A DNA stretch of 32,834 nucleotides from an uncultured Methanosarcinales archaeon (GCA_964582035.1 CAZOPZ010000001.1:27879-60712), one strand, 5' to 3'. Counted from the first letter of the stretch, positions 1,234-9,985 are shown. A program made the numbers and translations. The notes: generated by a model from the sequence alone, not told the origin.

Positions 1234-2412
1234 ATGAGCCAGTTAGTGCCGCCGCACGGAGGAAAATTAATAGACAGAATTCTCACGAACCATTCGCAGA
1301 TAGAAGAGTGGTGTTCTGACCAGAACCTCTTTCGCCTCGAAGTCCCCAGCACCATCTTGGTGGAAGCCGAGAACCTTGCTCATGGCTGTTTCAGCCCGCT
1401 TCAGGGCTTTCCCGGCGAGAATGAAATCGCGTCTATCCTAAATAACTGGCGGCTCCGCGATGGAACAACTTTCCCCATCCCGCCGGTGTTCGCTATCAAC
1501 GAACAGATAAAAAATCAGCTCGAAGTGCCTTCACGAATCATCCTTACGTATCAAAACACCCCTTTCGGAATTATGGATGGGGAAGAGATTTTCCCATTTG
1601 ATAAAAAATTCTTCATGCAATCAGTATTTAAGACTGCGGACCTTACGCACCCAGGCGCCGCTCTCATCGCAAAGATGGGAAACTTCTTGCTGGCCGGAAA
1701 AGTGTCCATTTTCGAAAGAAATTCCTATCTTTTTAGGGAAGCGCTCACCCCAAAAAAAGCTCGGGAGATCTTTTCAAAAAGAGGATGGAAAACGATTGCT
1801 GCTTTCTCGACGACGAACGTGCCGCACCGAGCCCACGAATATTTGCAACGCTGTGCTTTGGAGATGGCTGATGGGCTATTTATCCATGCCCTGCAAATAG
1901 TGGGGGGGAATGAAGATGAAGCCAAATACCCCCCACAAATTATTGCCGCAACCTATAAAGATCTGATCCGCAACTATCTCCCCGAGCCGAGAATAATTTT
2001 TTCGCTCCTGCCCCAGCTCGTGCGCAGTGCCGGCCCACGCTCCAGTGTCCTCCAAGCAATCATCCGCCAGAATTTTGGCTGTAGCCACCAAATTTTCGGC
2101 CGGGATCACGAAGGGTTTTCTCGCTTTTATGGGAAGTACGAATCACAAGAGATTTTTACGAAATTCTCCGATCTGCACCTCCAGCCGCTCTGCTTCAGAG
2201 AGCCATTCTACTGCCCAAAATGTGAGCTAATAGTAACTGAAAATTCCTGCCCGCATGCACTAGGGGGCATAAAAATAAGTGGCACAGAAATTAGAAGGAA
2301 ATTGAAACAGCAAGAACTGGTAGAACCATTTATTGTCCGCCCAGAAATCCGGAAGATCCTCTCTTCTCATCAGGTTTCTCGGGAGGTATCTCCTCGAGTC
2401 AACAAAGGATAA
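1234..2412 (+). CDS. sat: sulfate adenylyltransferase (ATP sulfurylase) family protein with divergent active-site motifs
   Basis: 392 aa. N-terminal LVPPHGGKLIDR, an HRAHEYL motif, GRDHEG, and a C-terminal CPKC...CPH zinc-site pattern as in short thermophile-type Sat. The canonical FQTRNPxHRAH reads FSTTNVPHRAH (nt 1804-1836), and GRDHAG reads GRDHEG (nt 2098-2115). Confidence 0.7.
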   Translation: MSQLVPPHGGKLIDRILTNHSQIEEWCSDQNLFRLEVPSTILVEAENLAHGCFSPLQGFPGENEIASILNNWRLRDGTTFPIPPVFAINEQIKNQLEVPSRIILTYQNTPFGIMDGEEIFPFDKKFFMQSVFKTADLTHPGAALIAKMGNFLLAGKVSIFERNSYLFREALTPKKAREIFSKRGWKTIAAFSTTNVPHRAHEYLQRCALEMADGLFIHALQIVGGNEDEAKYPPQIIAATYKDLIRNYLPEPRIIFSLLPQLVRSAGPRSSVLQAIIRQNFGCSHQIFGRDHEGFSRFYGKYESQEIFTKFSDLHLQPLCFREPFYCPKCELIVTENSCPHALGGIKISGTEIRRKLKQQELVEPFIVRPEIRKILSSHQVSREVSPRVNKG

Positions 2413-2472: not shown

Positions 2473-5337
2473 ATGGGTGAAAAAGCAATAAAGAAAGTAG
2501 CTTATAGCCCGGTGGTAGCAGATTTATTCCATTACGGCCATCTACAATCATTGCAATTTGCTTATGCGGCAGCGGATTATCATATATGCGGTATCTTAAG
2601 TGACGAAGCAGTACAGTCTTTCAGAGGAAAACCCATCGCTAATCTGCAAGAGAGGAAAGCGGTGGTTTCAAATTTAACCTGTGTTGATGAGGTGATGATA
2701 CAAACAGCTTTCGACCCGTCTGACAACCTCAAAAAGATCCAAGAGCGGTTCCCCCAGGCAGAACTTATTGTTATCAGGGGCTCGAACTGGAAAAAAGTTC
2801 CTGAGCTCCCCTATTTAAAACAAATCGGAGGAAGAATTCTGCAACACCCTTACTATGAAGAGCTTTCCGATTTTAAGGTCGTTAACAAGATTTTTGAGCA
2901 TTATGGGAAAATGTTCAGAGATTTTGAAACGTTCTCAAAATTTTTTAAGATTAATGACCTGACATCTCTAAAAGAAACAAATGGCACTACGGCTTTATCA
3001 ACGAAAGCTGAAACATTGCGGTCGTTACAGGCTGTACTGCAGCATGGGAAAATCGAAAAATCTTTTGTCTTTACCGTCGCAGAATGGGCCACAAAAGAAG
3101 AAGAGATTATGGGTAGGATACAAAAGCTGTTCCCCGAGGAGCTAGTGGTGGTGCGTAGTTCAGCAGTGCAGGAAGATAGCATCAAATCTTCACTGGCAGG
3201 ATTTTTTCATAGTGAATTGAACGTAGCGACAAAGAATAAGGAGAGCACCAGAGAAGCAGTAAACAAAGTTATCCGCACCTATGCGGAGAAAAAATCTTAT
3301 GATGCAAATAACCAGGTACTCATTCAGCGGCAGACCAGAAATGTTCAGTGTAGCGGGGTGGTTTTCACCCGCCAGCTGGAGACAAATAATCCTTATTATG
3401 TTATAAATTACGACGACCTGACTGGATTGACGGACACCGTTACCAAAGGCATGGAGAATCGAGTGGTGTATATCTCGAGATTCTGTGAAGAGAAAGATGT
3501 CCCGCCACCGCTACGGGGGGTTATTACCGCAGTGCGAGAAATAGAGTCTTTACTCCCCACTATGGGGTTGGACATAGAATTTTCTGTGAACAAACGGGGC
3601 GAGGTTATTATCTTTCAAGTGCGGCCCCTGAGCGTAAATATAAAAGTTGATCTCCCGCCAGACATCGAGATAAAAGAAAAGCTCGAAGAATTAAAAAAGC
3701 AATTTGATTATCTCTCTCAGAAGAAAGAGCATTTAAGTGGAACAAAGACCATCTTTGCTGACATGCCGGATTGGAATCCGGCAGAAATTATTGGAGACAA
3801 CCCCCACTACTTGGATTATTCCCTGTATGACTATCTTATTACAGATAGCGCCTGGCACCAGGCACGCACTTCACAAGGGTATTATAACGTCTCCCCAGCA
3901 AAATTAGTTTTTTCATTTGGCAACAAGCCCTATGTGGATGTCCGCCATAGTTTCAACTCTTTTCTTCCCGCCTCTTTGCCAGAAAGATTGAGGGAGAAAC
4001 TCATTAATTTTTACATTGATAAACTCCAGAAAAACCTGCACTTACAAGATAAAGTAGAATTCGAAGTCCTCCACACCTGCTATGATTTGACGTTCGATCA
4101 CCGATCAAAAGAGCTTCTGGCTGCAGGGTTTACCGCTGAAGAAGTTTGTTGCCTGAAAAAGTCTTTGTTACAATTAACCAACTCTCTTGTTTCTGATAGC
4201 TCTCTCAGAGATGACTTGGCGTTTATTCAAGAAAAAAAGGGGGGGAATGCTCCCCCAATCAGAATCCCCCAAGCCTGCCTAAAGCAGGCGATACAGCTCC
4301 TTGATAATTGCCGCTCATCGGGAACAGTGCAGTTTTCCCGACTGGCCAGATTAGCTTTCATTGGGAAGATTCTGGTCAAAAGTTTGGTCACAGAAAGGAT
4401 TCTTGAAGAGAGGTATTACCACCTATTTATGAGCTCTATTATAACGGTGGTATCAGAGATGAATGAGGATTTTTATTCTTTGAGCCGGGGGAGCATGGCA
4501 AAAAAATATTTCCTTGAAAGATACGGTCATCTGCGGCCGGGAACCTATGACATTACTGCTTTGCGCTATGACCAAAATGAAAATCTATTTGGGCGCTTGG
4601 TTCAGCTGCAGAAGCCGGAAAAAATTGCTTTCTCGCTTCCTCAGCAGATTCAGGAGAATATCTCGGCAACTTTTCGGGAACAGGGGCTGGCTTTTGACTC
4701 CAACACCCTATTCTTTTTCACAAGAGCGGCGCTGGAAGCCCGAGAGTTGTCCAAGTTTGAATTTACGCGAGAATTGAGTGACGCCCTGGAGCTGATTGCC
4801 CAAGCCGGAAAGATGTGGGGGTTCTCCCGGGAAAGCCTGTCCCATCTCGATGTCGACACTCTGAAGATAATAGCGGGGATAGAAGACGATAAAAAAGCAA
4901 GATCTATCCTCGAAAATATTATTGAGCATCGCAGCAAAGAGCGAAGGATAAACGACTCTTTGCTCTTACCTCCCGTAATAGCGTCGAAGAGAGACTTCGA
5001 AGTAGTTTCTTCTTATCGAGCCAAGCCAAACTTTACAACACAGAAGTCCGTGGAAGGCGAAATTATGACCCCATCTGGATTAAACAAAGGGGAGCTATCT
5101 GATTTTACAGGAAAAATTATTCTTTTAGAGAATGGTGACCCGGGGCATGACTGGATTTTCACTAAAAATCCTGCTGGTTTGATCACCAAATATGGGGGGG
5201 TCGCTTCCCACATGGTTATCCGCTGCGCCGAATTGGGAGTGCCTGCGGCTATTGGTTGTGGAGACATTTTTGACGAGATAAAGAAAGCACAAAAGGTTCT
5301 GCTCAACTGTAAAGAGCAAAAAATAACACCATGTTAA
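2473..5337 (+). CDS. fusion of a TagD-type cytidylyltransferase domain with a PEP-synthase/PPDK-like ATP-grasp kinase carrying a C-terminal phosphohistidine swivel domain (Cj1418 glutamine-kinase-like architecture)
   Basis: 954 aa. Residues 1-145 carry VVADLFHYGH (HxGH, nt 2530-2541) and ...ERKAVVSNLTCVDEV, marking a CTP_transf_like domain. The middle has VVVRSSAVQEDSIKSSLAGFFHSELNV, SGVVFT and IIFQVRPL (PPDK_N nucleotide-binding domain). The C-terminus has GGVASHMVIRCAELGVPAAIGCG (swivel His913, nt 5209-5211). There is no PEP/pyruvate TIM-barrel domain. Confidence 0.8.
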   Translation: MGEKAIKKVAYSPVVADLFHYGHLQSLQFAYAAADYHICGILSDEAVQSFRGKPIANLQERKAVVSNLTCVDEVMIQTAFDPSDNLKKIQERFPQAELIVIRGSNWKKVPELPYLKQIGGRILQHPYYEELSDFKVVNKIFEHYGKMFRDFETFSKFFKINDLTSLKETNGTTALSTKAETLRSLQAVLQHGKIEKSFVFTVAEWATKEEEIMGRIQKLFPEELVVVRSSAVQEDSIKSSLAGFFHSELNVATKNKESTREAVNKVIRTYAEKKSYDANNQVLIQRQTRNVQCSGVVFTRQLETNNPYYVINYDDLTGLTDTVTKGMENRVVYISRFCEEKDVPPPLRGVITAVREIESLLPTMGLDIEFSVNKRGEVIIFQVRPLSVNIKVDLPPDIEIKEKLEELKKQFDYLSQKKEHLSGTKTIFADMPDWNPAEIIGDNPHYLDYSLYDYLITDSAWHQARTSQGYYNVSPAKLVFSFGNKPYVDVRHSFNSFLPASLPERLREKLINFYIDKLQKNLHLQDKVEFEVLHTCYDLTFDHRSKELLAAGFTAEEVCCLKKSLLQLTNSLVSDSSLRDDLAFIQEKKGGNAPPIRIPQACLKQAIQLLDNCRSSGTVQFSRLARLAFIGKILVKSLVTERILEERYYHLFMSSIITVVSEMNEDFYSLSRGSMAKKYFLERYGHLRPGTYDITALRYDQNENLFGRLVQLQKPEKIAFSLPQQIQENISATFREQGLAFDSNTLFFFTRAALEARELSKFEFTRELSDALELIAQAGKMWGFSRESLSHLDVDTLKIIAGIEDDKKARSILENIIEHRSKERRINDSLLLPPVIASKRDFEVVSSYRAKPNFTTQKSVEGEIMTPSGLNKGELSDFTGKIILLENGDPGHDWIFTKNPAGLITKYGGVASHMVIRCAELGVPAAIGCGDIFDEIKKAQKVLLNCKEQKITPC

Positions 5338-5999
5338 TTGCCATCTCGCTCAGCGTGGGGGATAATCAACAAAAGCGAGTTCAGGACATATTGGAACATA
5401 ATTATGTTCGCTATTTTGAAAAATTTGGCGCAACGATACTCCTCATTCCCAATTCGACAGACAGCATAGCTACCTATTTTAGCCAATTCCCCATCAATGC
5501 TATCATCCTCTCTGGAGGGGGCAATATCAGTATCTCTCCCAGCACCGCCCAGAAACCCGAAAAGCCAGTCCATCCGAAACGGGAAGCGCTGGAAAGAAAA
5601 CTTATCGAAATCGCGGCAGAGAGAAACATTCCCATTTTAGGAATTTGCCGGGGGATGCAACTGATCAACATCCACTTTGGCGGTAGGCTGGTGCCCAGCC
5701 GCCATCCCATAGGGGAACACCAGATAGAGATTATCGCAAGGAAAGAAGAGCTGGGCGAGAAAGCGAGGGTAAATTCGTTCCATGATTGGGCTGTTATAAA
5801 AGAGACGCAGGCGGTGGAACTGAAACCATTTGCCTTTGCTGAAGATGGGGGCATAGAAGGCCTATACCACCCCCATTTGCCTATCGGCGGGGTGCAGTGG
5901 CATCCTGAGCGTATGTCCTTCGATGATGCACTGAATAAAATATTGGTTACAGCACTCTTAAAGAGAGAATTATTTTGGGGGCATGAGAATAGGCTATGA
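5331..5999 (+). CDS. class-I glutamine-amidotransferase-like / peptidase C26 gamma-glutamyl hydrolase (Cj1417-like candidate)
   Basis: 222 aa. PILGICRGMQLINIHFGG holds the nucleophile Cys106 (nt 5646-5648), and GVQWHPE holds the catalytic His. The start overlaps the upstream stop by 7 nt. Confidence 0.8.
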   Translation: MLIAISLSVGDNQQKRVQDILEHNYVRYFEKFGATILLIPNSTDSIATYFSQFPINAIILSGGGNISISPSTAQKPEKPVHPKREALERKLIEIAAERNIPILGICRGMQLINIHFGGRLVPSRHPIGEHQIEIIARKEELGEKARVNSFHDWAVIKETQAVELKPFAFAEDGGIEGLYHPHLPIGGVQWHPERMSFDDALNKILVTALLKRELFWGHENRL

Positions 6000-6054: not shown

Positions 6055-6468
6055 ATGAGCCATTGCCCCCTCTGTGAAATCCCTGAAAAAGAACAGTATC
6101 GGGTAGTTAGGAATAATGATTTAGTATATGCAGCCATACCCTATGCTCCAATAACTGAAGGGCACGTGATGGTTCTGCCAAAACGGCACGCCCGCCTGCG
6201 GCAACTGATCCCCGAAGAATTAGTGAGCCTCAATGCAGTGATTGAAGACCTGAAAGACCGCTTGGTAGAGCTGTTCCCGGAACGGCACCCGTTCATATCT
6301 ACCATGAGCGATACGATGCACGCCTCCGTCCCCCAGCATGGCCATTACCACCTCATGCCGAGCAAATATAACCTGCGGGTTCTGTACGATTGCCGTGACC
6401 AAAGGATATTATCAAATAAGCCGGTAGAGAGATCAATCTTGGAAGAGATGGCACTCCGCCTGCGGTAA
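6055..6468 (+). CDS. HIT (histidine triad) family nucleotide hydrolase/transferase
   Basis: 137 aa. Histidine triad HGHYHLMP (nt 6337-6351), an N-terminal CPLCE, and GHVMVLPKRH. Confidence 0.85.
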   Translation: MSHCPLCEIPEKEQYRVVRNNDLVYAAIPYAPITEGHVMVLPKRHARLRQLIPEELVSLNAVIEDLKDRLVELFPERHPFISTMSDTMHASVPQHGHYHLMPSKYNLRVLYDCRDQRILSNKPVERSILEEMALRLR

Positions 6469-6594: not shown

Positions 6595-7401
6595 ATGAAA
6601 GCCATCATCATTGCGGGGGGACTGGGAACCCGGCTATACAAATACACCAAAGACGTCCCGAAAGGGATGCTTACTTTCTTGGGGAGATCACTTCTGCAGC
6701 ATCAGGTGGATTGTTTTAGAAGCTGCGGCATAAGCAACATTGTTATCGTGAGAAAACATCTTGCGGACAAAATAAGCATCAAAGGCGTACGCTACATCGA
6801 TGAGGACCCTGCTTTAGAAGGCAATATGGTTCGGGGCTTATTCCATGCCCGGGGGGAGTTCGACGATGACATTATCATGACATATGGCGATGTCATATTT
6901 GAAGATAAAGTCATCCAGGTAGTCATTAACGACCCCTGCAGCGTTGGCTGTGTTGTTGATTTGGATTGGCGGGATTATTGGATAGCTCGATCAGGAAGTG
7001 ATAAAGAGGATACGGAAAGCTTGGTTTTAGAGGGGAAAAAAATTATTTCTTTGGGAGTGCCAGATCCAGACCCTGAAAAAATAGATGGCCGGTATGTCGG
7101 AATAGTCAAATTCTCCAAATCGGCGTTCTCTCCGCTTGAAGTAATATTTGACCGGCAGAAAAAATTATTCTGGGATAAAGATGAAAAATGGTATCGATCG
7201 AAAAACTTCAAGAGAGCATATATGACAGACTTCCTGCAATGCCTCATTGATAATGCCGTTCCTGTAGAAGCCATACCAATCTCCCATGGTTGGCTGGAAT
7301 TTGACACGAACGAAGATTATGAACGAGCGGTAAAATGGGCAAAAGAAGGGACTTTACACAGGTTCTACAGGCCTTCAAATGCCTCCAGCTCCCTTTTCTG
7401 A
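6595..7401 (+). CDS. LicC/GlmU-N-type nucleotidylyltransferase (sugar-1-P or phospho-base; Cj1416-like candidate)
   Basis: 268 aa. MKAIIIAGGLGTRL...PKGML signature, YGDVIF, and a C-terminal WLEFDTNEDYERA as in LicC-type cytidylyltransferases. Confidence 0.8.
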   Translation: MKAIIIAGGLGTRLYKYTKDVPKGMLTFLGRSLLQHQVDCFRSCGISNIVIVRKHLADKISIKGVRYIDEDPALEGNMVRGLFHARGEFDDDIIMTYGDVIFEDKVIQVVINDPCSVGCVVDLDWRDYWIARSGSDKEDTESLVLEGKKIISLGVPDPDPEKIDGRYVGIVKFSKSAFSPLEVIFDRQKKLFWDKDEKWYRSKNFKRAYMTDFLQCLIDNAVPVEAIPISHGWLEFDTNEDYERAVKWAKEGTLHRFYRPSNASSSLF

Positions 7402-8747
7402 TACCCTATCGCCAAAGTTCTTAACACAGGATGAATGGCATAGTATATTTCGCCCCCGGCGTTCTGTCGTTCTCCGCAGAGAGCGCCTTGCTGGGCCAAA
7501 GCCCCGGCGATATCAGCTAGGACTTGCGAGCGGATATAGGGGTCGTAGATCCGGCTAAAATCGACGTCGGCTGCTGGTGGGGGGAAATCACGAGAGGTGA
7601 TAATATCCCCCGCATCAATCTGAGGGGTCATAAAAAAACCTGTTGCTGTGCACTGCGCTTCAGAAAGAAAGCTATAGATAAACGTCGTGCTTCCACGGAA
7701 CTCCGGTAATCTCCCTGGGTGGACATGAATAAGCTTTTTTCCCGTCGAAAGAATGTCTTTTTTCAGTATGCCAGAGCCGCTAAATATGAAATATTCCTCA
7801 GCTGCTTGCCGCAAAGCGCTAATGACTTGAGCTTCGTTAAACCCTTGGGCGGGTATCAATTTGTAGGGAATATTCTCTTGGCGTACCGTTTCAATAAAAG
7901 ACTTTCCGGGATCAAAATATCTTTTTTCTCCAAGAATTGTCTCCAAACCTCCCTCGACCGAGGTTTTGTCTTCCAAGATAATCGCGGCGTGCGGCTTGTA
8001 GCCCGCCTGCAGCAGCCCTTGAATGTATGCTCTGGCCCGAATCTTGTCTTGCACGATCATCCCCAGATCCTCTATTGTTCTTTTGTCAACTGTTATTTTA
8101 TCGACTGCCAATGGGGACTGCGGCAATAAGCGTTGCGTAAGGGGCCGCTCTTTCAGATTACCATAGAGCCCGCGGATAGCATCGAGCTCGCTACTCAGGA
8201 CGGAAGAGAACACCAGAGCATAAGCATTATCTACCTCTTCAGCGCGGGAGATAATCTTATCATTGACTTTCAGTAAAGTGCTTAATGATTGCAGGCTATT
8301 GGTTGAGCAATAATGGCTGCTTAAAGCTCTCGCGAGACGGAGATAATGCTCAAGGTCAGCGTCAGCAGCACTGCAAACAGAAAGATTCTGGCCGCTGTAG
8401 GCATTCCTTACTTTCTGTAGCTCTGCTTTTCTGCGCAACTTTTTTAACAAAGTTTCATCCCCCCCAAATACGGCATCTAGGAGCTGAGAAGTGGCAATCT
8501 CCCCCGGACCGAGCTCTGCCCGCCCTGCGAGATGGTGCTGCGCTGGAACTCCGGCTGAAGATTGGTTTAAAAGAGGTCTTAAGTTCGCTAAAGCTTGTCT
8601 TCTTGTTTGAAGATAATCCCTGATAAATTCGTTCCCTTGGTATTCTACAAAAGGATAAGGCACCGATAGCCGCTGTTGTTCTGGAGTAGCATAAAAATAC
8701 AAAGGGGGCATGAGAAAAGACATAAGAAAGCTTCTTCTCAGGAGCAT
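7365..8747 (-). CDS. two-domain protein with an unknown N-terminal region of about 250 aa and a formyltransferase-fold C-terminal domain
   Basis: The C-terminal KLIHVHPGRLPEFRG...MTPQIDAGDII matches the Formyl_trans_N core (xINxHxSLLPxxRG...D). I take the start at Met63 of the track ORF (8747). The longer 8933 start would overlap the divergent GT4 gene. ATGs at 8723 and 8711 are alternative starts. Confidence 0.55.
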   Translation of the reverse strand: MLLRRSFLMSFLMPPLYFYATPEQQRLSVPYPFVEYQGNEFIRDYLQTRRQALANLRPLLNQSSAGVPAQHHLAGRAELGPGEIATSQLLDAVFGGDETLLKKLRRKAELQKVRNAYSGQNLSVCSAADADLEHYLRLARALSSHYCSTNSLQSLSTLLKVNDKIISRAEEVDNAYALVFSSVLSSELDAIRGLYGNLKERPLTQRLLPQSPLAVDKITVDKRTIEDLGMIVQDKIRARAYIQGLLQAGYKPHAAIILEDKTSVEGGLETILGEKRYFDPGKSFIETVRQENIPYKLIPAQGFNEAQVISALRQAAEEYFIFSGSGILKKDILSTGKKLIHVHPGRLPEFRGSTTFIYSFLSEAQCTATGFFMTPQIDAGDIITSRDFPPPAADVDFSRIYDPYIRSQVLADIAGALAQQGALCGERQNAGGEIYYAIHPVLRTLAIGYQKRELEAFEGL

Positions 8748-8795
8748 TATAAATCTTCGTGAACTGTTGTCCAGACTATCATTTCTTCGATAAGA

Positions 8796-8803
8796 TTTAA
8801 ATA
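8796..8803 (+). promoter_or_regulatory. TATA-like box (TTTAAATA) 29 nt upstream of GTG 8825
   Basis: A/T-only octamer in the 77-nt divergent intergenic region. Confidence 0.3.
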
Positions 8804-8824
8804 AGCTCTTTCTGCCCACCGCTC

Positions 8825-9985
8825 GTGAACATCGCACTGGTCGCGCCCGGATTTCTCCTGAACAGAAAAGAGGCCACATGGATAACGCTGGTTGAATTGG
8901 CAAAAAGATACCAATCTCTGGGGAATCGGGCATTTATCATTGCCCGAAAACACGCCTCTCAGCCACAAATAGAGAGCGTTGGAGGAGTTAAAGTTTATCG
9001 CTTTTATTCGGGGAAATACGGAACCCAATTATTCAATGCAGGGTGGAGCCTTAAGCTCCTGAAAAAAAAAGAAAAACTCGGCCAGCTCCTGGTTCATGGT
9101 TTCGGTTCAAGCTCTTTTTTTGCGTTCAGTACGTTCCTCGCCGGTAAAGCGGTGAAAGCGCCAACAGTTTACACGATAAAATCGCAGCCAAAAAAAGATT
9201 GGATTGATCGGCTGTTCTGCCCCAGCTTGAGAATGGTAAACACCATTACCGTCCCCACGGAGGTTATGAAAAATAGGATTGTAGCCACTTGCCCGCCCGA
9301 AAGGATCAGAGTGATTCATTCGAATATCGACACGGCAAAATTCAAGCCGCGTGACCGACAGTGTCTCAAAGAGAAATATGGCTTAGCAGATAAACAGCTT
9401 ATTCTGTACTACGGGGCCATTCGGAAAGAAAAAGGGGTCGACTGCCTTTTGCAGGCCATGCCGGAGGTGCTAAAGCAATTCCCCCGTGCTCTTTTTTTCT
9501 TGGCCATCCGCTCCAAAGCCTTAGCAGCGCGGGAAAAATATTGGTCTTTCGTAAAAAAGATGGGATGTGAAAAAAAATGCATTATTACCGTAGAGGATCT
9601 CCCGATCGAAGAATATGTGAGCATGGCGGACCTAGTGGCGTTAGCATACCCGACCATGGCAGGAACTGAAGGAAACCCCTCCTGCCTTTTGGAAGCAATG
9701 GCCAGCAAGACGCCGGTAATAACAACCAATCTGCCAGAATTAAGAGAGATAGTCGTGCCGGATGAAGAAGTCTTAATGGCGCAGCCGGGGGATGCACATT
9801 CTCTGGCAGAAAAAATAAGCCAGTTGCTTACTGATAGTTTACTCCAGAAAAAAATGGTCGAAAATGCTTTCATGAAATCCCAACAGTTTAGTACGGAGAT
9901 TATTGCCGATCAATTTCTGAAGCTGTATGAGAAGCTGTTGAGAAAATGGGAGGGTGTTGGGGAAGATACCGGCAGACGATCGTGA
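8825..9985 (+). CDS. GT4-family (Glycos_transf_1, GT-B) glycosyltransferase
   Basis: 386 aa with a GTG start. The C-terminal EGNPSCLLEAMASKTPVITTNLPELREIV is the EX7E-type retaining GT-B signature. Confidence 0.85.
   Translation: MNIALVAPGFLLNRKEATWITLVELAKRYQSLGNRAFIIARKHASQPQIESVGGVKVYRFYSGKYGTQLFNAGWSLKLLKKKEKLGQLLVHGFGSSSFFAFSTFLAGKAVKAPTVYTIKSQPKKDWIDRLFCPSLRMVNTITVPTEVMKNRIVATCPPERIRVIHSNIDTAKFKPRDRQCLKEKYGLADKQLILYYGAIRKEKGVDCLLQAMPEVLKQFPRALFFLAIRSKALAAREKYWSFVKKMGCEKKCIITVEDLPIEEYVSMADLVALAYPTMAGTEGNPSCLLEAMASKTPVITTNLPELREIVVPDEEVLMAQPGDAHSLAEKISQLLTDSLLQKKMVENAFMKSQQFSTEIIADQFLKLYEKLLRKWEGVGEDTGRRS

Follow-up and report, generated by a model that had tools for sequence, protein, structure and literature searches.

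The stretch of DNA analyzed here, 32,834 nucleotides from an uncultured Methanosarcinales archaeon (GCA_964582035.1 CAZOPZ010000001.1:27879-60712; the whole stretch is referred to as the window), raises the question of what a cytidylyltransferase-like domain does at the N-terminus of an enzyme that appears to be a glutamine kinase. The gene in question occupies positions 2473-5337 of the plus strand. An earlier note, made from the sequence alone, had proposed that its product phosphorylates a substrate and immediately converts it to a cytidine diphosphate (CDP) adduct. The explanation that we favor, with a probability of roughly 0.55, is that the gene belongs to a glutamine-kinase cassette and that the additional domain, recognizable by its HxGH signature, carries out a cytidylylation in cis.

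The gene is a single, uninterrupted open reading frame (ORF) of 954 amino acids (aa) which, as judged from the open frame, Pfam, NCBIfam, and the architecture of homologues, combines an HxGH cytidylyltransferase-like domain with a putative L-glutamine kinase of the Cj1418 type; all parts named in the following lie on the plus strand. The N-terminal nucleotidyltransferase domain, similar to the cytidylyltransferase (CyTase) domain of Fom1, comprises aa 1-141 (2473-2895) and is supported by PF01467, by alignment with the structure 5x3d, and by Foldseek, with the Pfam match CTP_transf_like at aa 17-90 (E 5e-9, 36.9 bits, cut-off 21). The HxGH signature itself, which reads HYGH and contains His20 and His23, is encoded at 2530-2541; the earlier note had assigned FHYGH to this range, and the motif is present, but the Phe codon lies at 2527-2529. 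A variable and flexible linker of about 35 residues (aa 142-176, 2896-3000) joins both modules; it is the least conserved part of the protein and was modeled with a predicted local distance difference test (pLDDT) of 36-61. It is followed by an ATP-grasp/PPDK_N-like nucleotide-binding domain at aa 177-386 (3001-3630; Foldseek and PF01326, PPDK_N, at aa 179-312, E 2.6e-12), a central, mainly helical domain at aa 387-879 (3631-5109) that is presumed to bind glutamine, lies within the NF004508 match, and contains invariant residues, and a C-terminal swiveling phosphohistidine domain at aa 880-948 (5110-5316; PF00391, PEP-utilizers mobile domain, E 4e-11). Both of the latter Pfam matches exceed their gathering cut-offs. 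The predicted phospho-carrier His913 (codon CAC, 5209-5211) is part of the sequence GGVASHMVIR and is located 41 residues from the C-terminus, exactly where the earlier note had placed it, and the in-frame combination of HxGH domain, PPDK_N, and swivel-His enzyme claimed there is confirmed by the one 954-aa frame with three Pfam domains above their cut-offs. An AlphaFold2 model of the fusion protein based on 31 homologues reached a mean pLDDT of 82.9 and a predicted template modeling score (pTM) of 0.71.

It was in principle conceivable that the fusion is an artefact of assembly or gene calling and that cytidylyltransferase and kinase are really two genes, all the more so as two related records contain separate ORFs (L070 with 258 aa for the cytidylyltransferase and 684 aa for the kinase, L075 with 237 aa and 757 aa). 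However, the frame is uninterrupted in the window, and the same fused frame is common to more than 150 independent sequences from Woesearchaeota, other small archaea, and bacteria, which come from many assemblies, samples, and phyla and include the complete Woesearchaeota chromosome CP070803.1 and the isolate genome of Parabacteroides goldsteinii DSM 19448. All 120 best homologues in a collection of 5.8 billion proteins each combine these three domains in a single chain of about 950-1000 aa, a homologue with 92% identity to the window protein, which stems from a separate assembly, is also fused, and 13 further genomes of the window's phylum contain the fused frame without an internal stop. Even within the variable linker, F154 is invariant in the 31-sequence alignment. 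By these comparisons, the fusion is not an assembly artefact, the chance of this being practically negligible, and the artefactual junction that the earlier note had named as its own possible refutation was not borne out. A literature search did not find a paper on a cytidylyltransferase-glutamine kinase fusion, and database pipelines label the fused proteins either 'glutamine kinase' or 'adenylyltransferase/cytidyltransferase family protein'. The domain combination, which the earlier note did not recognize as characterized, is thus real and experimentally uncharacterized.

With respect to the kinase body, aa 171-952 correspond to positions 7-786 of the 789 in the NCBIfam model NF004508/PRK05849, with a score of 841 bits, above the cut-off of 501 that no protein in 14 control genomes exceeded. 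We take PRK05849 to be the family of C. jejuni Cj1418. Cj1418 is an L-glutamine kinase (EC 2.7.3.13) that uses ATP to phosphorylate the amide nitrogen of glutamine, the initial committed reaction in the synthesis of O-methyl phosphoramidate (PMC6429109, PMC10971088, PMC3907429), and cj1415-cj1418 are the genes for O-methyl-phosphoramidate biosynthesis in this organism (PMC3907429). Five fused homologues are labeled 'glutamine kinase' by JGI. The best structural match of the modeled kinase body in Foldseek was rifampin phosphotransferase (E 3.6e-21), and the ATP-grasp part matched the ATP-binding domain of this enzyme as well as ATP-grasp ligases. By analogy with the domain order of rifampin phosphotransferase, the central domain is presumed to be the substrate-binding part; it is rich in invariant residues, such as DMPDWNPAEI at 430-439 and HLRPG at 686-690. 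His913 is invariant in sets of 118 and 31 aligned homologues, as is the surrounding motif GGxASHMxIR. We therefore consider it very probable that the ORF encodes a Cj1418-type L-glutamine kinase within a CDP-amidate cassette.

The genes that follow point in the same direction. Five genes separated by short gaps run in the same direction here; the fusion gene is number two among them, and 7 nucleotides at its 3' end are shared with the gene that follows. This next gene (5331-5999, plus strand) encodes a class-I glutamine amidotransferase/Peptidase_C26 protein by Pfam, with the Cys of a GICRG motif and an HPE motif, and is a candidate Cj1417-like gamma-glutamyl-CDP-amidate hydrolase; an orthologue is named N5-(cytidine 5'-diphosphoramidyl)-L-glutamine hydrolase by JGI, which is the Cj1417 function. 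At 6595-7401 (plus strand), 1.26 kb downstream of the fusion gene, lies the second, LicC-type nucleotidylyltransferase that the earlier note had correctly spotted at a distance of 1.3 kb, an NTP_transf_3 (LicC/MobA-type) protein (PF12804/PF00483) with intact GGLGTRL and PKGM motifs. JGI names one of its orthologues L-glutamine-phosphate cytidylyltransferase, the function of Cj1416. The remainder of the window is a polysaccharide cluster with GT4 and GT2 glycosyltransferases, a flippase, a methyltransferase, DegT aminotransferases, and a GDP-mannose dehydratase.

To place this gene order in context, a scan of one genome per prokaryotic species yielded at least 580 loci with a kinase relative. 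The architecture survey covered the best 80 of these at least 580 loci plus 25 loci from other searches and used hidden Markov models built from in-house locus clusters, and three architectures were distinguished: HxGH-fused, unfused, and NTP_transf_3-fused. All counts of locus contents refer to the well-flanked loci (34 HxGH-fused, 24 unfused, and 8 NTP_transf_3-fused). The order kinase, Peptidase_C26, NTP_transf_3 was kept in every relative locus that we read. In the fused type, the hydrolase gene is adjacent in 34 of 34 loci and the NTP_transf_3 gene is present in 33 of them; the genome of the only locus that lacks it carries the gene on a different contig. In a phylogenetic tree, the NTP_transf_3 copies of all three cassette types fall into one clade, and this same clade provides the only nucleotidyltransferase in related small-archaeal cassettes with an unfused kinase, so that, by parsimony, the protein encoded at 6595-7401 is likely a glutamine-phosphate cytidylyltransferase. 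On the basis of the conserved order and the Cj1417 and Cj1416 names, we can say with considerable confidence that kinase, hydrolase, and NTP_transf_3 protein represent the cytidine-diphosphoramidate cassette known from the C. jejuni capsule. In gut-bacterial loci, this trio is the only conserved unit and therefore behaves as a self-contained, mobile module for donor synthesis that moves between glycan clusters. Sequence searches of the Protein Data Bank (PDB) did not find a solved structure of Cj1416 or Cj1417.

The N-terminal domain is as conserved as the kinase, with a mean column identity of 0.67 in comparison to 0.65 for the kinase and 0.42 for the linker. D17, G22, R61, D72, and S132 are invariant, H20 is near-invariant (at least 97%), and H23, G40, Q77, D81, and N85 are further invariant or near-invariant positions; these conserved positions are the active-site positions of enzymes of the GCT/CCT/Fom1 type. 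Of 151 full-length fused homologues, 141 retain both HxGH histidines. Over the whole domain, the closest solved relative in sequence as well as in predicted fold is the Fom1 CyTase (5x3d), to which aa 8-136 align with E 5e-11, and in Foldseek the predicted fold superimposes on 5x3d, a complex with cytidine monophosphate (CMP)-conjugated 2-hydroxyethylphosphonate (HEP-CMP), with a TM score of 0.80 and a root-mean-square deviation of 2.4 A. TM scores of 0.72-0.84 to 5x3d, 2b7l, 1coz, and 5xf2 indicate a Rossmann-like nucleotidyltransferase fold. By profile, motif, and fold, the domain is a member of the PF01467 superfamily, albeit without the canonical second motif. In a tree of cytidylyltransferase domains, the kinase-fused domains group with stand-alone cytidylyltransferases of about 180 aa (support 90), and this joint clade is sister to the Fom1-type domains (support 99). 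A search with only the N-domain among 1.84 billion representatives found the kinase as the sole recurrent fusion partner (62 of the best 150). Most likely, the N-domain is catalytically competent and CTP-dependent.

How these parts could work together is outlined in the following, where we infer every chemical step, above all the substrate of the HxGH domain, whereas the domains, the family, the cassette, the active-site conservation, and the phylogenetic placement are observed. The ATP-grasp domain would take phosphoryl groups from ATP, and His913 on the swiveling C-terminal domain would ferry them to the central domain, where L-glutamine as the presumed substrate would be phosphorylated on its amide nitrogen. 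The NTP_transf_3 protein (6595-7401) would then join the product to CMP from CTP, giving CDP-L-glutamine, which the amidotransferase-like protein (5331-5999) would hydrolyze to glutamate and cytidine diphosphoramidate, an activated phosphorus-nitrogen (P-N) donor for the glycan that the surrounding polysaccharide cluster presumably produces. The tethered HxGH domain would cytidylylate a small P-N acid originating from the same polypeptide, either glutamine phosphate or phosphoramidate, and would thereby work alongside the Cj1416-type enzyme with partial overlap and not in its stead. The proposed phosphorylation followed by CDP-adduct formation thus matches the Cj1418/Cj1416/Cj1417 logic leading from L-glutamine to CDP-L-glutamine, but the assignment of the second step to the fused domain, as in the earlier note, is not established, since a Cj1416-type NTP_transf_3 protein with an intact GxGTRL/PK motif is co-encoded in 33 of 34 loci. 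The possibility that the HxGH domain replaces the Cj1416-type enzyme was rejected, as the Cj1416-type gene, with its motifs intact, is kept in every fused-type genome examined, and the HxGH domain must therefore be regarded as an addition. That this addition performs an in-cis cytidylylation of a P-N intermediate of the pathway has, in our estimation, somewhat less than an even chance when taken as a claim on its own. Such a role agrees with the conservation of the catalytic site, with relatives that activate phosphonates, and with the tether, and it is compatible with the loss of a histidine in 10 of 151 proteins.

Several points weigh against in-cis cytidylylation within a Cj1418-type cassette. 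The Cj1416-type enzyme is always kept, whereas one HxGH histidine, H20 or H23, is missing from 10 of 151 fused proteins, so that catalysis by the N-domain appears to be the more dispensable activity, or the domain is mainly ligand-binding. For two consecutive steps, fusing the adjacent Cj1416-like gene would have been the simplest solution, and yet a foreign type of cytidylyltransferase was recruited. In the analogous NTP_transf_3-kinase fusions, the GxGTRL/PK motif of the fused domain has decayed. The N-domain lacks the canonical RTxGISTT motif; the equivalent region, which was modeled with low confidence, reads HPYYEELSDF, and in the family consensus HPYYxRLSxF (HPYYxxLSxF) only Ser132 is invariant, with Arg at position 130 in 53%. 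As regards the pathway, the best NCBIfam match of the 5331-5999 product, NF045546 (GCDPHdlase), reaches 101 bits and thus stays below its cut-off of 250, and the putative link of PRK05849 to Cj1418 comes from source annotations such as the JGI names. When an unfused kinase from a gammaproteobacterium served as the query of a homologue search, a Campylobacter protein was not among the listed matches.

Alternatively, the HxGH domain may be a nucleotide-binding sensor or scaffold and not a catalyst of the pathway, in which case binding of CTP or CDP-amidate could gate the ATP-costly kinase, or the domain could keep the partner enzymes together. In the 10 proteins that lack an HxGH histidine, the pocket is otherwise preserved, with Y11, D17, G22, G40, D44, E60, R61, D72, Q77, and N85 still conserved; HYGH is replaced by NYGQ in two of seven stand-alone relatives, the N-terminal NTP_transf_3 domain of the other fusion type has lost its catalytic Arg/Lys motif in most members, and the known cytidylylation is already covered by the Cj1416-like enzyme. 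An N-terminal extension of about 35 residues, present on about half of the fused proteins and on stand-alone relatives, hints at an interaction module, but its resemblance to AbrB/MazE is not significant (E 0.03). Against this reading, 93% of the fused proteins, archaeal as well as bacterial and with overall identities as low as about 37%, keep both catalytic histidines, and all invariant positions are active-site positions of GCT/CCT/Fom1-type enzymes, a pattern typical of working enzymes. We regard a purely sensory or structural role as unlikely, albeit as the strongest competitor to in-cis cytidylylation. A further explanation, which we consider slightly more doubtful still, is that the HxGH domain carries out a distinct second nucleotidyl transfer that is absent from the C. 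jejuni pathway and stands in for the 3'-kinase step of Cj1415, yielding a different activated P-N donor or re-activating a phosphoramidate monoester. Two unrelated folds, HxGH and NTP_transf_3, are fused to the kinase N-terminus while the Cj1416-like gene is retained, and the fused NTP_transf_3 domains form their own clade by the phosphonate-type domains, apart from the Cj1416-like ones. In addition, a gene similar to adenylylsulfate (APS) kinase without accompanying sulfation genes is found in 15 of 24 unfused loci but in only 1 of 34 HxGH-fused and 1 of 8 NTP_transf_3-fused loci. Among six near-complete genomes of small archaea that carry the HxGH fusion, four (G000, G305, G380, G035) do not contain a convincing APS kinase anywhere, whereas it is present in the related unfused small-archaeal cassettes L104, L132, L125, and L116.

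This anticorrelation is only suggestive, because there are few independent contrasts and because triple fusions of APS kinase, cytidylyltransferase, and glutamine kinase exist (P0038, P0039, L008), in which both functions can evidently coexist. The kinase tree provides six to seven contrasts, of which about three are opposite, none are the same, and about three are unchanged (sign test, p about 0.25). An essential transfer step would also not tolerate the loss of an HxGH histidine in 10 of 151 fused proteins. The NTP_transf_3 domain of the other fusion type seems to have decayed as a catalyst, and the data name no substrate. If extended to the pathway as a whole, the idea would amount to a second, undescribed phosphoramidate branch in which the 3'-phosphorylation of cytidine diphosphoramidate gives way to a further nucleotidyl transfer that generates a new activated P-N donor. 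It would seem improbable to us, and the same low expectation applies to its two corollaries, namely that a nucleotidyltransferase would have been recruited for this purpose at least twice, as HxGH fold and as NTP_transf_3 fold, and that such a branch would prevail in Woesearchaeota and related small archaea of the DPANN type as well as in gut anaerobes, for example Parabacteroides, Lachnospiraceae, and Synergistota.

As in C. jejuni Cj1418, the kinase body corresponds to the full-length PRK05849 profile with ATP-grasp and C-terminal swivel His, it is encoded beside a Peptidase_C26-type hydrolase and an NTP_transf_3 cytidylyltransferase, and the cassette lies in a surface-polysaccharide locus with a methyltransferase nearby. 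In contrast to Cj1418, the window protein has the extra HxGH nucleotidyltransferase domain of about 140 residues at its N-terminus, the accessory genes of the window encode ATP-sulfurylase-like (with altered motif), HIT, and formyltransferase-like proteins, and the host is not an epsilonproteobacterium but an archaeon with a small genome of 1.15 Mb. A Cj1415-type 3'-kinase, as known from C. jejuni, was found neither in the window locus nor in the 91%-complete genome.

The closest parallel for the N-terminal domain is Fom1 of Streptomyces wedmorensis, whose CyTase domain (5x3d) makes CMP-2-hydroxyethylphosphonate in fosfomycin synthesis (PMC6697681). The window domain shares with it the Q77..D81..N85-L86 and HGxDW motifs, and in both proteins the cytidylyltransferase is attached N-terminally to the enzyme by which the first unusual phosphorus bond in the pathway is formed (PMC6697681). 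The Fom1 domain turns a small P-X acid into its activated CMP conjugate (PMC6697681), and the window domain would by analogy do the same. The partner in Fom1 is a phosphoenolpyruvate (PEP) mutase that forms a C-P bond, here it is a putative glutamine kinase forming an N-P bond, and the PYTPGISST of Fom1 is replaced by HPYYxxLSxF in the window family. With rifampin phosphotransferase (RPH-Lm; 5hv1, 5fbs), the kinase shares the domain order ATP-grasp, substrate-binding domain, swiveling His, but the identity is only 13-15%, the substrate domain differs, and rifampin phosphotransferase has no nucleotidyltransferase domain. PntC/LicC-type phosphonate and phosphocholine cytidylyltransferases (PF12804), which are often fused to PEP mutase, likewise activate small phosphorus head groups by nucleotidyl transfer for the tailoring of surfaces (PMC6697681), but the HxGH domain has another fold, and the PF12804 protein of the window is the free-standing Cj1416-like one. 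A preprint on Borgs predicts O-methyl-phosphoramidate genes in archaeal extrachromosomal elements, there with a PEP-mutase-nucleotidyltransferase fusion instead.

In terms of general significance, the fused form is a widespread elaboration of the glutamine-kinase cassette, whose core chemistry is already known. To our knowledge, glycans are regarded as rarely containing P-N bonds, and C. jejuni is the only organism in which the biosynthesis of these bonds has been elucidated. Decoration of glycans with P-N bonds is probably much more common than the literature suggests, and if the second branch discussed above should exist, P-N-decorated surface glycans would be far more widespread than the Campylobacter case implies. 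If the HxGH domain is catalytic, it adds or re-routes a step toward the activated phosphoramidate donor; if it is regulatory, a nucleotidyltransferase fold has been turned into a sensor on a kinase.

The HxGH fusion is the commonest form of the kinase in small archaea and in several gut-bacterial lineages. Proteins of this architecture have about 930-1000 aa and occur in the archaeal Woesearchaeota, Nanoarchaeia, and Altiarchaeales and in the bacterial Bacteroidales, Lachnospiraceae, Clostridia, Synergistota, Flavobacteriales, Desulfuromonadales, Gastranaerophilales, and Gottesmanbacteria. The distribution is patchy, as about 16 of 401 sampled genomes of the window's phylum carry the fused gene. 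Unfused kinases of about 790-815 aa are found in Nitrosopumilus, Pacearchaeota, Omnitrophota, Planctomycetota, Leptospira, and Alteromonas and, according to a separate homologue search, also in Aeromonas, Pseudomonas chlororaphis, and Shewanella. The third architecture, NTP_transf_3 plus kinase with about 1010-1100 aa, occurs in Haloferax elongans, Spirochaetaceae, Saprospiraceae, SAR86, Anaerolineales, and others; examples are L124 8278-11439 (Haloferax elongans ATCC BAA-1513), L111, L117, L119, L123, L126, L127, L129, and L135. These fusions keep a free Cj1416-like NTP_transf_3 protein and the hydrolase alongside. Their fused NTP_transf_3 domains, in which the GxGTRL/PK motif has decayed in most members, form a clade of their own in the tree, near the phosphonate-type NTP_transf_3 domains and away from the Cj1416-like ones. 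Cultured carriers exist for both fusion types, namely Parabacteroides goldsteinii DSM 19448 with the HxGH fusion and Haloferax elongans ATCC BAA-1513 with the NTP_transf_3 fusion.

Larger proteins were also encountered. The triple fusions of an APS-kinase-like domain, the HxGH cytidylyltransferase, and the glutamine kinase have 1130-1143 aa (P0038, P0039, and L008 8001-11393). Further variants of 1128-1208 aa (L043 8814-12374 in G242, which belongs to the family of the window genome, and P0146, P0148, P0150, and P0168) combine the cytidylyltransferase with only the N-terminal part of the kinase, followed by other sequence with PEP-utilizers and a strong C-terminal PPDK_N match, and may represent a different kinase built on the same N-terminal module.

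The N-terminal extension of about 35 residues (MKKVVWKNKSNGQLCVTIPKxSGIKEGDxV), which precedes the cytidylyltransferase in about half of the fused homologues, is seen, for example, in P0017, P0023, P0031, and P0045 and in the stand-alone cytidylyltransferases of L036-L042, but not in the window protein. Its assignment as an AbrB/MazE DNA-binding domain was rejected, the Pfam match being below the cut-off. The stand-alone cytidylyltransferases themselves occur in two types of archaeal phosphonate loci. In the first type (L036 6830-11660, L039 3965-9474, and L041 7590-9418, from genomes G222, G153, and G058 of the window's phylum), they are encoded beside a Fom1-like cytidylyltransferase-PEP mutase, a thiamine pyrophosphate (TPP)-dependent phosphonopyruvate decarboxylase, an Fe-alcohol dehydrogenase, and B12-radical-SAM enzymes, an arrangement that resembles the early fosfomycin pathway. 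CDP-alcohol phosphatidyltransferases are also present in these loci beside the stand-alone HxGH protein, which suggests that CMP-activated hydroxyalkylphosphonates are used for surface or lipid tailoring in these small archaea. In the second type (L037 8819-14174, L038 3964-9381, and L042 8884-13405), the stand-alone cytidylyltransferase is followed by an NTP_transf_3 protein, a PhnD/PhnC/PhnE phosphonate ABC transporter, and a second NTP_transf_3 protein, resembling an import-and-activate phosphonate module. The NTP_transf_3 proteins directly after the stand-alone cytidylyltransferase form the sister clade of the Cj1416-like ones.

Of the accessory genes in the window, the one upstream of the fusion gene (1234-2412, plus strand) encodes an ATP-sulfurylase-like protein with the altered anion motif STTNVPHRAH (Pfam PUA_2 and ATP-sulfurylase, below the NCBIfam cut-off), which accompanies only a subset of the cassettes. 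Two classes of such proteins can be distinguished near the kinase genes. In class 1, with about 390 aa, the sulfate-binding QTRNP reads STTNV(I)PHRAH, and HIT and formyltransferase-like genes are found together with it in four fused-kinase loci (the window, L051, L054, and L059), and neither an APS kinase nor a sulfotransferase is encoded in any of these four; proteins of this class may act on an anion other than sulfate. Class 2, with about 750 aa and an HTRNV motif, occurs together with APS kinase and Sulfotransfer_1 and gives the impression of a genuine sulfation module. The HIT-family protein of the window (6055-6468, plus strand; PF01230) has the triad HGHYHLM, and a HIT gene is present in 5 of 34 fused-type loci compared with 0 of 24 unfused loci.

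On the opposite strand, 7365-8933 encodes a protein of 522 aa with a weak C-terminal formyltransferase-like domain (PF00551, E 1.5e-4, below the cut-off), which is a candidate tailoring or transfer enzyme and has homologues adjoining the cassette in L006 and L051. Proteins of the formyltransferase fold recur in all three cassette architectures and could account for a step not yet assigned. In L136 7152-12761 (Alteromonas ponticola) and L093 7172-13879 (Leptospira ilyithenensis), for instance, the gene order is an APS-kinase-like gene, two small Formyl_trans_N-like genes, the unfused kinase, the hydrolase, and NTP_transf_3. CDP-alcohol phosphatidyltransferase genes (PF01066) lie near the cassette in 12 of 34 fused-type and 4 of 24 unfused loci. 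Two recurrent neighbor families without a Pfam or NCBIfam match comprise about 297 aa, seen only with the fused type, and about 425 aa, seen with fused and unfused kinases. These families and the PF01066 genes, which occur near the cassette in L006, L008, L010, L044-L047, L052, L055, and others, are possible transferases for the activated donor.

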